IMG/VR virus record: IMGVR_UViG_3300042347_000998
Direction: 5' to 3' (one strand)
Source: an uncultured virus (IMG/VR IMGVR_UViG_3300042347_000998)
Taxonomy: Duplodnaviria; Heunggongvirae; Uroviricota; Caudoviricetes
DNA length: 20,000 nucleotides
Shown here: one piece after another, positions 3,903 through 8,050 of the stretch
Layout: every line of letters begins with the position of its first letter
Position numbering within the stretch: position 1 is the first letter of the stretch
Notes under the pieces: generated by a model
Databases searched by the model: none
What the model saw: the letters and a program-made list of their open reading frames with translations, nothing else
Told to the model about the DNA's origin: nothing
Program-made: the position numbers and the translations under genes

Positions 3903-3923
3903 CTTTTGGTTCTTTGGTATGAT
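3895..3923 (+). promoter_or_regulatory. Sigma70-like promoter
   Basis: TTGACT (3895-3900), 17 nt spacer, TATGAT (3918-3923), with extended -10 TG. Confidence 0.7.
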
Positions 3924-3952
3924 TGATGAAGGTTACTATTGCTTTCTTTACT

Positions 3953-4348
3953 ATGTTTGGACCTGAGGACGAGAGAAATTTAAATGAGTTTACAATAAAA
4001 CTTAATGAAAAAAATGGTTTAATTGACATCAACAAAACTTCTGTGAATATGCCTGAAAATACAAATGCTAATGGTTTCTGGAAATATAATGAAGATAAAA
4101 TCCTGAAACAACTTGAACAGTACATTGCCAGTACTTATAGTCAGCACTATGTTGATAGAACTGGTGGTGGAACGGAACAAACACTAGACAAAATCAAACA
4201 CAATCGTCGTGAAGGATTTTGTGCTGGTAATGTGACCAAGTATATTGACCGTTATGATACCAAAGGAACACCAAGAGCAGACTTGTTTAAAGTTTTGCAT
4301 TATACTATTCTTTTGATTAATCATCTCAATCTCGTTGAAAACAAGTGA
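3953..4348 (+). CDS. DUF3310-like (T7 gp1.7-like) conserved phage protein
   Basis: Pattern YSQHY...EGFCAGNVTKYIDRY..K....DLFKVLHY. The start at 3953 is preferred over 3923 because the promoter -10 overlaps 3923; 4049 is also possible. Confidence 0.65.
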   Translation: MFGPEDERNLNEFTIKLNEKNGLIDINKTSVNMPENTNANGFWKYNEDKILKQLEQYIASTYSQHYVDRTGGGTEQTLDKIKHNRREGFCAGNVTKYIDRYDTKGTPRADLFKVLHYTILLINHLNLVENK

Positions 4349-4422
4349 AATTTAAATCTCAAACTATGAAACTTTCTGAAAAGACCACTAACATAAATAT
4401 TTTTCTAAATACTATTAGATGA
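4345..4422 (+). pseudogene. Orphan 5' stub of gp45, now a 25-codon upstream ORF
   Basis: GTG at 4345 overlaps the upstream stop and reads (M)KFKSQT-MKLSEKT-TNINIFLNTIR*. MKLSEKT (4366-4386) matches the gp45 start MKLSEQT at 4876 in 6 of 7 residues. Confidence 0.7.
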
Positions 4423-4434
4423 AAAATATTTATG
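4392..4434 (+). promoter_or_regulatory. 14-bp hairpin sequestering the HNH start codon and overlapping late-promoter motifs
   Basis: CATAAATATTTTTC (4392-4405) is the exact reverse complement of GAAAAATATTTATG (4421-4434). CATAAATA is at 4392-4399 and CTAAATA at 4405-4411. Confidence 0.8.
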
Positions 4435-4872
4435 CCCAAAAACGAATATAAAGACAAAACTAAAAAAGAATATCAACAAGAATGGAAATCTCAAAATAGA
4501 GAAAGGCAAAGGCAACTACAAAGAGATCACTACTACAAAAAAAAGGAATATTTGCTTGAAAACGTTGGGAGAGTATGTGTGTCCTGCGGATCAACCAAAA
4601 ATATTGAATTTGATCATATTATGCCAAGAACTTCTTCCGAAAAAGAAAAACAAACAAAACTTAGAACTGGGAATACTAGTGGTAATATAATTTGGAATAA
4701 AAGACCATCCTCCATGAGTTGGGAATGTATAAAAAAAGAAATTACAGATTTACAACCACTATGTAACGATTGCCATAGAAAAAAATCAAATGCTCAACTT
4801 TCCGCTGCTTGGGAACTTTTTTGCTCCTTATCATTGGAAGAACAAACTAAACTTACCTATTTACAATATTAA
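4432..4872 (+). CDS. Free-standing HNH endonuclease, putative homing endonuclease
   Basis: CVSCG..KNIEFDHIMP and LQPLCNDCHRKKS form a zinc-binding HNH signature. Basic N-terminal helix; very A-rich. Confidence 0.88.
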   Translation: MPKNEYKDKTKKEYQQEWKSQNRERQRQLQRDHYYKKKEYLLENVGRVCVSCGSTKNIEFDHIMPRTSSEKEKQTKLRTGNTSGNIIWNKRPSSMSWECIKKEITDLQPLCNDCHRKKSNAQLSAAWELFCSLSLEEQTKLTYLQY

Positions 4873-4875
4873 AAA

Positions 4876-5541
4876 ATGAAATTATCTGAACAAACTTTGG
4901 CAATTTTAAAAAATTTTTCTTCCATTAACCAAAGTATCCTTATCAAAAAAGGAAATAAATTGCGTAGTATTTCTGTGATGAAGAACATTCTTGCGGAAGC
5001 AGAAATTAAGGAAGAATTCCCAAAAAACTTTGCGATTTATGACCTTAACCAATTTCTAAATGGATTGGGACTACACCAAGACCCTGATCTTGACTTTGGG
5101 AATGATTCGCACGTTATTATTCGTGAAGGAAAACGTCGAGTAAAATATTTCTTTGCTGACCCTGAAGTAATTGTCTCACCACCAGAAAAAGAAATTTCAC
5201 TTCCTTCTGAAGATGTTTGTTTTCAACTAGAACATTCGCAACTTGATAAACTAATCAAAGCATCATCAGTTTATCAACTCCCAGATCTTTCTGCTGTTGG
5301 TGAATCAGGTGTAATCCGTTTGGTTGTTCGTGATAAGAAGAATGATACTTCCAACGAGTACTCTATTGTAGTTGGTGAGACTGATAAAGAATTCACTTTT
5401 AACTTCAAGGTAGAAAACATTAAGATTATTCCTGGTTCTTATGATGTAGTTGTGTCAGAAAAACTTCTGTCTAAATTCACAAACGAACGTTATAATTTGA
5501 CTTATTATATTGCTTTGGAACCTGACTCCAATTTTTCTTGA
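4876..5541 (+). CDS. gp45: DNA polymerase sliding clamp
   Basis: MKLSEQTLAILKNFSSINQSI, FAIYDLNQFL and C-terminal YYIALEPDS; synteny with gp44/gp62. Confidence 0.95.
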   Translation: MKLSEQTLAILKNFSSINQSILIKKGNKLRSISVMKNILAEAEIKEEFPKNFAIYDLNQFLNGLGLHQDPDLDFGNDSHVIIREGKRRVKYFFADPEVIVSPPEKEISLPSEDVCFQLEHSQLDKLIKASSVYQLPDLSAVGESGVIRLVVRDKKNDTSNEYSIVVGETDKEFTFNFKVENIKIIPGSYDVVVSEKLLSKFTNERYNLTYYIALEPDSNFS

Positions 5542-5557
5542 TTTTTAATTTTATATT

Positions 5558-6097
5558 ATGAATATTTTTGTCGTCGATGAATGTCCTGTAATTTCTGCTG
5601 CGGCACTTCCTGATAAACACGTAGTTAAAATGCCCCTGGAGACCTGTCAGATGGTCTCTGTCATCTTCTCCAAGTGGTACTATAATTGGGGATACATTCC
5701 CAAAAAAGACGGTCTGCCGTACAGTACAGAGAAGGGTGCGTTCCGTAATCATCCTTGTACTCAATGGGCAGCAAAATCCCACGAAAACCTTGCTTGGTTG
5801 ATTCGGCACGGATTTGCCCTTTGTAATGAGTATCGGCATCGTTATGGTAAAGACCACGCTTGTATGAAAGGACTTGAAGTAGCAGAGAATATTTTTGCTA
5901 CTAAAAGTGGAAAGGAAATTTCTATCTATAAAAATGTGGTAGAATTCACAAGGGCAATGCCCGACGAATACAAATTTGATGAAAGTATTGATACCCCAAC
6001 AGCATATCAAAAGTATGTTGCGTCTAAACCTTGGGTAAAGGACAATTACCTAAAAATTCCTGATAGAATGCCAAATTGGATTTATAATTATGCGTGA
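5558..6097 (+). CDS. Putative pyrimidine-dimer DNA glycosylase-like (DenV-related) protein
   Basis: Family pattern MNIFV.D..P...A..LPDKHVVKMPLETCQM, NHPCTQWA, LCNEYRHRYGKDH and AMPDEYK. Activity is not demonstrated. Confidence 0.65.
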   Translation: MNIFVVDECPVISAAALPDKHVVKMPLETCQMVSVIFSKWYYNWGYIPKKDGLPYSTEKGAFRNHPCTQWAAKSHENLAWLIRHGFALCNEYRHRYGKDHACMKGLEVAENIFATKSGKEISIYKNVVEFTRAMPDEYKFDESIDTPTAYQKYVASKPWVKDNYLKIPDRMPNWIYNYA

Positions 6098-7237: not shown

Positions 7238-7613
7238 ACTTAAGGATTGGTTAAACTCAATAAATCAAACAAAAATTAATTTAATGGATGAAAATCCAGA
7301 TTCAGAAAAAGAATATCCACCCTATATCATTAATCGGTGTTTTTCTGGTCATATTGATACAGTAATGTTCTCAAATGAAATGAATATGTTTCATTCTCTT
7401 CCCAAAAAGATGCAGTATGATTTTTATATAAATAGTTTAAGGAAGAGAAAAAGATTTTCTCCTTGGATTCGTAAAGACACAATTAAAGATATTAATTGTA
7501 TTAAACTTTATTATGGATATAGTGATGAAAAGGCAAAACAAGTCTTGAGAATTTTAACACAAGAGCAAATTAATTTTATAAAATCAAAATTTGAAACTGG
7601 AGGAATGAAATGA
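7227..7613 (+). CDS. gp62: Clamp loader small subunit
   Basis: LKDWLNSINQTK, YPPYIINRC, LRKRKRFSPW and YYGYS; located between gp44 and regA. Confidence 0.93.
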   Translation: MKIELKDWLNSINQTKINLMDENPDSEKEYPPYIINRCFSGHIDTVMFSNEMNMFHSLPKKMQYDFYINSLRKRKRFSPWIRKDTIKDINCIKLYYGYSDEKAKQVLRILTQEQINFIKSKFETGGMK

Positions 7614-8050
7614 GTACTATTGTTGAACCTGTTGTGAATTGGTCACCTGATCATATGATTGAGGTGGTTCTGAATGAACCCGATGATTTTCTTAAAGTTC
7701 GTGAAACCTTGACTCGTATTGGAGTTGCATCACGGAAAGAAAAGAAAATATACCAATCTTGTCATATTCTCCATAAACAAGGTCGTTATTATATTGTTCA
7801 TTTTAAGGAACTTTTTGCCTTAGATGGTAAATATGCTAATCTGACTTTGAATGATATTCAAAGAAGAAACAGAATTATTCAATTGTTGTCGGATTGGGGT
7901 CTTATAACAGTTGTAAAAGTTGAAAAAATTGTAGATATCGCTCCTTTAAATCAAATTAAGGTTATTTCATATAAGGACAAAGGGGACTGGATTTTGGAAA
8001 CTAAATACAATATTGGTGCTAAAAAGAAAAAGGTAGAGGATGCCGAATAA
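7610..8050 (+). CDS. regA: Translational repressor RegA
   Basis: PDDFLKVRETLTRIGVAS and QSCHILHKQGRYYIVHFKELFALDG. Confidence 0.96.
   Translation: MSTIVEPVVNWSPDHMIEVVLNEPDDFLKVRETLTRIGVASRKEKKIYQSCHILHKQGRYYIVHFKELFALDGKYANLTLNDIQRRNRIIQLLSDWGLITVVKVEKIVDIAPLNQIKVISYKDKGDWILETKYNIGAKKKKVEDAE

Follow-up and report, generated by a model that had tools for sequence, protein, structure and literature searches.

A probable intronless homing cassette with a free-standing HNH endonuclease gene at the start of the sliding-clamp gene of a T4-like cyanophage

Intronless homing and the gp45 locus

Homing endonuclease genes normally spare essential genes, either by hiding in introns or inteins or by sitting between genes. 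In a 20,000-nucleotide (nt) stretch of the uncultured-virus record IMGVR_UViG_3300042347_000998 (IMG/VR; Caudoviricetes), referred to here as the window, a free-standing HNH endonuclease gene is found at the very start of gp45, the essential sliding-clamp gene. Judging from the sequence, we consider it probable that this gene is part of a homing-endonuclease cassette lodged in gp45, and that the cassette practises intronless homing with co-conversion. The locus would then represent a third strategy, here in a phage, by which the element inserts into the coding sequence but supplies a substitute start with silent changes at the presumed target.

Intronless homing has been described for T4 SegF (beside gene 56), SegG (gene 32) and MobE (between nrdA and nrdB) (PMC2988022; PMC2790892). 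Like these seg and mob elements, the window carries an intronless endonuclease gene beside an essential gene. The T4 enzymes cut genomes without the endonuclease in the adjacent gene, and break repair copies the endonuclease gene along with flanking markers (co-conversion and marker exclusion; PMC2988022); at the present locus, we infer the cleavage step. Unlike the T4 elements, the one in the window interrupts what is coding sequence in the empty allele (after nt 15); it has a direct repeat of the gene start on its flanks and carries a replacement start codon. Its HNH protein also differs in belonging to a small, metagenome-only clade, the best match from a sequenced phage being 34% identical. 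What appears to be new is thus the in-frame insertion compensated by a replacement gp45 start; the behaviour itself, as read from the sequence, would match known intronless homing in T4.

Endonuclease genes that lie within host genes without an intron or intein have precedents in mobA (T4 topoisomerase genes 39 and 60), Aeh1 mobE (nrdA) and seg43(25) (gene 43) (PMC2988022), and mobA together with the gene 60 bypass has been presented as one mobile cassette (bioRxiv 10.1101/2022.08.31.505936). With mobA, Aeh1 mobE and seg43, the host gene is split into two polypeptides that reassemble, whereas gp45 of the window stays one gene and its old start is abandoned. Fungal mitochondria offer another parallel: in atp6 and cob, a duplicated partial C-terminal gene end lies beside free-standing endonuclease ORFs (open reading frames; PMC6279837). 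The fungal cases concern the 3' end of the gene, organelles, and GIY-YIG or LAGLIDADG enzymes; the window presents a 5' end, a phage, an HNH enzyme and a stranded fragment of 8–21 nt. In Allomyces atp6, the endonuclease ORF reportedly brings a replacement end and leaves the old end stranded as a dead fragment. Among cyanophages, F-CphI of S-PM2 is likewise a free-standing homing endonuclease in a T4-like phage (PMC3037559 and PMC6083498). F-CphI has an Endo VII-type catalytic motif and a gene beside psbA, and its target is the insertion site of an intron; neither in sequence nor in locus is it related to the HNH protein of the window. In the literature searched, with most subscription papers outside the search, we found neither an endonuclease at the gp45 start of cyanophages nor a duplicated gp45 start.

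Its ORF list and Pfam matches identify the window as the replication and recombination module of a T4-like cyanophage. Among sequenced phages, the freshwater Synechococcus phage S-SRM01 comes nearest, with 78.7% nt identity where the two sequences align. The features of the locus are listed below; L019 is an HNH-less IMG/VR locus that serves as a reference throughout.

3923..4348, plus strand: DUF3310 gene, the left neighbour (Pfam DUF3310, E = 7.3e-8; 83% amino-acid identity to the S-SRM01 homologue)
4345..4365, plus strand: 21-nt spacer or "pseudo-start", beginning with a GTG in frame with the stub; also present in HNH-less relatives
4366..4386, plus strand: stub, a putative relic gp45 start that coincides with the native start position and forms the left junction of the mobile block
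4392..4434, plus strand: predicted leader hairpin (14-bp stem, 15-nt loop), its 3' arm including the HNH AUG at 4432–4434
4432..4872, plus strand: free-standing HNH endonuclease gene, 146 amino acids (Pfam PF01844; PHROGs HNH families)
4876..4970, plus strand: cassette-borne gp45 5' end, comprising the start codon and ~31 codons, delimited by divergence from L019 and by signature positions
4971..5541, plus strand: remainder of gp45, native type (92% nt identity to L019)

The mobile unit is made up of four parts: the stub, the hairpin leader, the HNH gene, and the replacement gp45 start with its ~31 diverged codons. The DUF3310 stop codon (TGA, 4346–4348) marks the left end of the junction and is overlapped by the GTG at 4345. 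In frame with this GTG, the stub ATG at 4366 opens an 18-codon ORF (MKLSEKTTNINIFLNTIR) that stops at 4420–4422. The gp45 ATG at 4876 lies 3 nt past the HNH stop codon, and the gp45 ORF (4876–5541) is complete: it encodes 221 amino acids and matches gp45-slide_C with 42.8 bits (Pfam). Because the cassette supplies a new 5' end, gp45 stays whole and no splicing is needed. The locus had been singled out in an original prediction made from the letters of the window, whose coordinates all proved exact when the sequence and ORFs were rechecked.

The empty site, the stub and the replacement gp45 5' end

Compared with the window, S-SRM01 shows a single gap of ~530 nt (about 4340–4870) that spans the stub, leader and HNH gene; its DUF3310 stop codon overlaps the gp45 ATG. 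A gp45-seeded search of IMG/VR yielded 80 loci, among which the nearest HNH-less ones were L019–L025 and L028 (gp45 89–94% identical at the amino-acid level). In these relatives, the DUF3310 stop is followed by a 17-nt spacer and then by the gp45 ATG, which occupies the position of the window's stub (4366), and nt 1–15 of their gp45 are identical to the stub. The insertion point is therefore placed after gp45 nt 15. The empty allele anticipated by the original prediction, running from the first 15 nt of the stub straight into gp45, is accordingly what these relatives carry.

The stub and the working gp45 start agree at 16 of their 21 nt and in six of seven residues. A match this good or better arose in 60 of 5,000 mononucleotide shuffles of 4349–4875, which makes it moderately unlikely by itself; on both strands of the window, the stub is the sole other 21-mer with at least 16 matches to the gp45 start. 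The resemblance is nevertheless real, because the native gp45 ATG of the HNH-less relatives falls exactly at the stub ATG. The claim of a duplicated start is upheld by this shared position together with the shared nucleotides and residues.

Searching IMG/VR with the HNH protein identified 14 loci: six at 99–100% identity (group 1), seven at 84–86% (group 2), and one truncated copy (L017). Record G001 holds an HNH gene identical to that of the window in the same arrangement. The group-2 background is a distant one, with gp45 ~73% identical to the window's in nucleotides and a DUF3310 homologue ~40% identical in amino acids. There, the HNH gene occupies the same junction and the gp45 5' end bears the same changed codons. 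Its stub is shorter: it consists of nt 1–8 of the native start, at the native distance from the upstream stop. HNH homologues in another background are thus also flanked by a stub and a recoded start, as had been proposed.

Which parts of the left junction belong to the cassette? The spacer differs among cassette-bearing backgrounds (the last differences being at 4351, 4357 and 4359) and is native sequence outside the cassette, and the stub is invariant across group-1 copies save for a single-nucleotide polymorphism at 4383 in L007. Since the spacer variants match those of HNH-less natives, the spacer is the recipient's and the stub is the block's. By eye, nt 16–21 of the stub are closer to a group-2-type native start than to the local group-1 one. 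The original view of the stub as the orphaned native start of this gp45 therefore stands in part: its position and nt 1–15 are native, but nt 16–21 resemble another lineage and the stub moves with the block. We read the stub as a relic gp45 start that now travels with the cassette, recombination presumably joining within the shared 15–21 nt.

At the other end of the cassette, the identity of the window's gp45 to that of L019 is 87% over nt 1–15, 63% over nt 16–96 and 92% over nt 97–666. There are 32 differences in the first 96 nt and 44 in the remaining 567 (Fisher, 2e-10). The break falls at about 4965–4970, in agreement with the expectation that identity would resume near 4970. Between the window and group 2, this tract is 80% identical and the rest of gp45 73%; the corresponding values for the natives of the two backgrounds are 68% and 73%. 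An additional argument from AT-richness fared less well. The first 96 nt of gp45 are indeed AT-rich (24.0% GC vs. 35.3% for the rest), but the argument fails because the 5' end of the native allele is AT-rich as well (28.1% GC) and the HNH gene (31.7%) has the average composition of the window (32.7%).

A comparison of 11 unique intact-HNH loci with seven close group-1 natives and 52 close group-2 natives identified seven signature positions in gp45 (nt 7, 58, 59, 73, 85, 87 and 92; window 4882, 4933–4934, 4948, 4960, 4962 and 4967), at each of which one base is fixed in the carriers and present in at most 10% of both native sets. Five of them are synonymous: Leu CTN to TTN (nt 7), Ser TCN to AGT (nt 58–59) and Leu CTT to TTG (nt 85 and 87). 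The remaining two are nonsynonymous, with Glu replaced by Lys (nt 73) and Thr by Ser (nt 92). In the cultured, HNH-less S-SRM01, gp45 has the native signature. That five of seven fixed differences from both native sets are silent is consistent with protection of a target.

The linkage of this tract to the HNH gene was assessed in two gp45-seeded sets of 80 loci each, chosen without regard to HNH or tract and including 148 HNH-less loci in total. The HNH gene occurs at one junction in 2/80 and 8/80 of these loci, and close relatives lack it. All ten loci with an intact or contig-cut HNH gene carry the tract, which is absent from one truncated copy. Among the 148 HNH-less loci, the tract was present in one (L042), which has a single native-like start, and a stub combined with a recoded start, the arrangement that would have spoken against the original prediction, was present in none. 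The central proposal, that an essential gene was invaded without splicing and given a replacement start, thus draws support from the empty site, the foreign tract and the tract–HNH linkage. None of the outcomes named beforehand as refuting it was observed.

No source lineage in which the changed codons are the general state emerged from exact, degenerate or L193-seeded searches. The exact search with 26 nt of the tract returned eight loci, all of group 1 plus L042 and L185; the degenerate 20-nt search returned 24 stretches, 22 at gp45 and two unrelated; and the gp45 search seeded with L193 found the signature in 3/80 loci, whose relatives lacked it. The idea that the tract was borrowed from some phage lineage was set aside: no lineage carries the signature throughout, so such an origin could not be shown.

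Spread, decay and expression of the cassette

Group-1 copies of the cassette reside in at least three left flanks: that of the window, that of L004 and L009, and that of L007 and L008. From 4360 to at least 4992, the block in these four loci is 98.5–100% identical to the window, whereas their DUF3310 genes are 86–88% identical to the window's. The left edge is sharp: in all four, the last left-hand difference from the window is at 4359. The right edge is variable, with the first differences past the tract at 4993 (L009), 5046 (L008), 5100 (L007) and 5142 (L004). The most recently co-converted flank thus ends between 4992 and 5141 in the various backgrounds. Such a pairing of a sharp edge with a variable one is what break repair by strand invasion would be expected to produce. 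The near-identical block in diverged flanks shows that the cassette has spread horizontally.

Copies in various states of decay are also present. L017 (the same as L153) has lost the leader and the first 83 HNH codons, retaining residues 84–146, and its gp45 5' end is of the native type. L190 and L202 keep the leader and tract, but of their HNH gene only a handful of codons at either terminus survive; the internal HNH deletion of L203 is another one. In the HNH-less L185, the complete tract follows the spacer immediately and the stub is missing. Upstream, the background of L185 is 98–100% identical to the HNH-less L028; after nt 100, the identity is 88–98%. Such an allele could have arisen by deletion between the two copies of the start. 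L042, L251 and L315 are HNH-less too; they are native-type at nt 7 (in L042, the first ~33 nt are native-like) and bear the signature at nt 58–92, and their relatives are without it. Because the tract-only alleles share this nt 58–92 core, the target is likely placed around nt 58–92. The metagenome contigs thus hold all stages of the cycle at this site: empty alleles, alleles freshly invaded in several backgrounds, and decayed, lost and tract-only ones.

The HNH protein matches PF01844 with 27.5 bits (Pfam cut-off 21.4) and 11 PHROGs HNH families, with a best E of 2.8e-14. Residues C49, C52, D61, H62, C111, C114 and H115 are invariant among seven sequences from three clades, whose identity to the window's protein ranges down to 34%. 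The protein has both CxxC pairs (zinc ligands) as well as the catalytic His of the beta-beta-alpha-metal motif. The ratio of nonsynonymous to synonymous substitution rates (dN/dS) between groups 1 and 2 is 0.03–0.06, with synonymous sites near saturation; the protein is therefore under strong purifying selection. The family is small, comprising 10 clusters in a collection of 5.8 billion proteins, and its clade was found in metagenomes only. No sequenced-phage record spans the HNH region, and at the protein level sequenced phages gave 16 weak matches, at most 34% identical, with no cyanophage among them. A PDB sequence search with the HNH protein returned no match, and for a 64%-identical cluster (P0009) no locus was found in metagenome_contigs or viral_contigs. 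Near the 3' end of the HNH gene, 4839–4853 encodes EEQTKLT and shows a 9-nt match to gp45 nt 13–21 followed by AAACTT, as in the stub; this may represent a former start fragment that the HNH frame took up, or chance.

How might expression of the HNH gene be controlled? The 14-bp stem of the leader pairs 4392–4405 with 4421–4434, and its 3' arm contains the HNH AUG. The predicted RNA fold has an energy of −12.7 kcal/mol (z = −5.8), and none of 200 shuffles folded as well. Across seven distinct leaders, 96% of the cells are paired and 3 of 11 pairs have changed on both sides; in slid controls, 52–64% are paired. The loop region contains TCTAAATA (4404–4411), which resembles a late promoter. The exact motif TATAAATA, which we take to be the T4 late-promoter consensus, occurs three times in the window, against 2.15 occurrences expected, and not at all in the cassette. 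A sigma-70 and terminator scan found no plus-strand promoter-like site in 4153–5658 and no terminator, a result that is uninformative for T4-type middle and late promoters.

For I-TevI, I-TevII, I-TevIII, segB and Aeh1 mobE, PMC2988022 describes a stable hairpin that buries the translation start on read-through transcripts, and a late promoter placed such that late transcripts cannot form the hairpin. The layout of the window hairpin (4392–4434), as read from the sequence, resembles this I-TevI/segB type of control. It differs in having no clear Shine-Dalgarno sequence and in carrying TCTAAATA, rather than the consensus, in its loop. By analogy, the hairpin that buries the HNH start and the late-promoter-like motif in its loop probably limit HNH expression to late infection.

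The window also encodes the translational repressor RegA (7610–8050; Pfam Translat_reg, E = 2.5e-44). Gene 45 mRNA is a target of RegA in T4, and since it is the translation-initiation region of gp45 that the cassette exchanges, phages with and without the cassette may differ in how RegA controls gp45. An Rfam search of 4200–5100 gave no match at E up to 1, and there is therefore no sign of a group I intron at the locus. An intron or intein carrying the endonuclease was rejected, given the lack of an Rfam match, an HNH ORF bounded by start and stop codons of its own, and a complete gp45 downstream.

Starts resembling that of gp45 are not confined to carriers. In L171 and L173, a tandem copy of the gp45 start unit is 20/21 identical, and 21-nt units also lie at L110, L019 and other loci, which makes gp45 gene-start calls around such pseudo-starts uncertain and should be borne in mind during annotation. 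The 21-nt unit may be an N-terminal extension, a relic, or the footprint of past endonuclease cassettes. The in-frame GTG unit upstream of the stub, to which the original prediction had pointed, is not a product of the insertion: a similar unit is present in 73 of 148 HNH-less loci. Since pseudo-starts occur in HNH-less loci, a duplicated start at this site needs no HNH gene of the window's type.

Two other HNH clades live nearby. The L158 clade is 37% identical to the window's protein and occupies the same DUF3310–gp45 junction (914–1400 in L158), with an "ATGAAAA" stub and a homologous leader. Its HNH ORF continues through a 21-nt pseudo-start, located at the 3' end of the endonuclease gene, and terminates within the opening codons of gp45. 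A deletion between the "ATGAAA" repeats that flank an L158-type gene would leave exactly the pseudo-start of HNH-less genomes, a route to which we assign a low probability. The second clade, of 169 amino acids and 27–35% identical (tblastn), lies one gene upstream, between a cobS-like gene and DUF3310, in many contigs (L227–L249). It has a 15-bp hairpin before the gene (e.g., L227 1432–1473; z = −5.4) with TATAAATA in the loop, and a GC-rich hairpin after the gene. The upstream hairpin is homologous to the leader hairpin of the window.

Proposed mechanism and competing explanations

In the mechanism that we favour, the HNH enzyme would cut or nick HNH-less gp45 alleles within their first ~95 nt, most likely around nt 58–92, where all cassette alleles carry fixed, mostly synonymous changes. 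Repair of the break would use a co-infecting HNH-bearing genome as template and so copy the cassette. The left end of the recipient would be able to pair only at the stub and upstream of it, giving a sharp left junction; its right end would pair only beyond the poorly matching diverged tract, giving a variable right junction. Once acquired, the tract would make its carriers immune. The predicted target is a narrow one, a gp45 stretch of ~35 nt, and the seven positions named above should decide sensitivity. A further consequence concerns annotation, in that the first ~95 nt of gp45 in such phages differ in history from the rest of the gene.

Several observations weigh against this reading. The enzyme is known from metagenome contigs alone, and cleavage, target site and immunity are deduced from them. 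Chimeric contigs assembled across the identical block could have mixed left and right flanks, although chimeric assembly would still need several backgrounds that carry the block. The central Asn of the HNH motif (before "LQPLC") appears as Asp in groups 1 and 2 and as Asn in the L158 clade. The AlphaFold2 model of the protein is of moderate quality (predicted local distance difference test score, 73.9), and its top-ranking Foldseek hits in the PDB are HNH nucleases with weak scores (best E 0.13). The covariation in the leader comes from seven sequences, and 20–30 of 500 shuffles reach the observed values, which amounts to modest support. The group-2 leader of L010 folds poorly (z = +0.66), and TCTAAATA matches the presumed late-promoter consensus at 7 of 8 positions. 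Finally, a 21-nt gp45-start-like unit lies directly upstream of the ATG in 73/148 HNH-less loci (54/78 and 19/70 in the two sets, by a loose pattern).

This last observation is the backbone of an alternative in which the duplication of the start came first: gp45 would be prone to in-frame tandem duplications of 21 nt, and the HNH gene would have landed between existing copies, orphaning no native start. The 54/78 and 19/70 HNH-less loci with such a unit, the 20/21 tandem copies of L171 and L173, and the fact that the group-1 stub and leader are together exactly 21 nt longer than those of group 2 all point in this direction. However, group-1 carriers possess the native 21-nt unit plus the stub, one copy more than their HNH-less relatives; the group-2 stub amounts to no more than nt 1–8 of the native start, at the native distance; and the HNH-linked diverged tract is left unexplained. 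We thus deem this history unlikely. Even less probable in our estimation is that the HNH protein is no homing enzyme, serving instead in defence, repair or packaging, with the mosaic produced by ordinary recombination or by selection on the gp45 N-terminus or translation start while the HNH gene hitch-hikes. The tract does change residues (7 of 32 relative to L019) and does replace the translation-initiation region of gp45 in a window that contains regA (7610–8050); it is found without an HNH gene in five distinct alleles, and the protein itself is known from sequence. A housekeeping role, however, does not predict the marks of a homing element that are seen here: an occurrence that is sporadic and confined to one site, near-identical copies whose surroundings have diverged, a sharp edge opposite a variable one, decayed copies, and synonymous changes at five of seven signature positions.

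The stub could also be dismissed as a chance resemblance or an artefact of assembly, given that 60 of 5,000 shuffles attain 16/21 matches. We regard this as extremely improbable, as the stub ATG sits exactly at the native start position, its first 15 nt are native, and the same arrangement recurs in six independent IMG/VR loci and in record G001. The homing cassette remains our preferred explanation. It can tentatively be extended, to a form that we find possible but lean against, in which the duplicated start has a function in the element and testifies to a long contest rather than to the accident of one insertion. The stub may act as the left homology arm. The stub ORF, which extends into the hairpin and terminates 9 nt short of the HNH AUG, could couple HNH translation to the gp45 initiation site. 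The 21-nt pseudo-starts may be footprints of earlier cassettes deleted between "ATGAAA" repeats, as the L158 clade suggests. If this extension holds, the first ~30 codons of the clamp gene have been rewritten repeatedly by invasion, immunity and loss, and the alleles with the signature at nt 58–92 only would be survivors of attack that gained immunity without the gene.

Across the whole window, the gene order is gp47, DUF3110, gp46, DUF3310, HNH, gp45, a Pyr_excise protein and gp44, followed by a small ORF, gp62, RegA, Hsp20, DUF6561, gp43, UvsX, a cupin hydroxylase, gp41 and MazG. The module varies at a further place, to the right of gp45: in the group-1 carrier L009, ~600 nt (about 4105–4747 of that locus) that are missing from the window separate gp45 from the Pyr_excise gene. 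A last peculiarity concerns Synechococcus phage ACG-2014f isolate Syn7803US44 (L002, KJ019103.1), in which gp45 is annotated as two adjacent coding sequences (1502–1975 and 1975–2265). Its gp45 match is ~100 nt longer than in sister isolates, which could reflect a frameshift or a small insertion.

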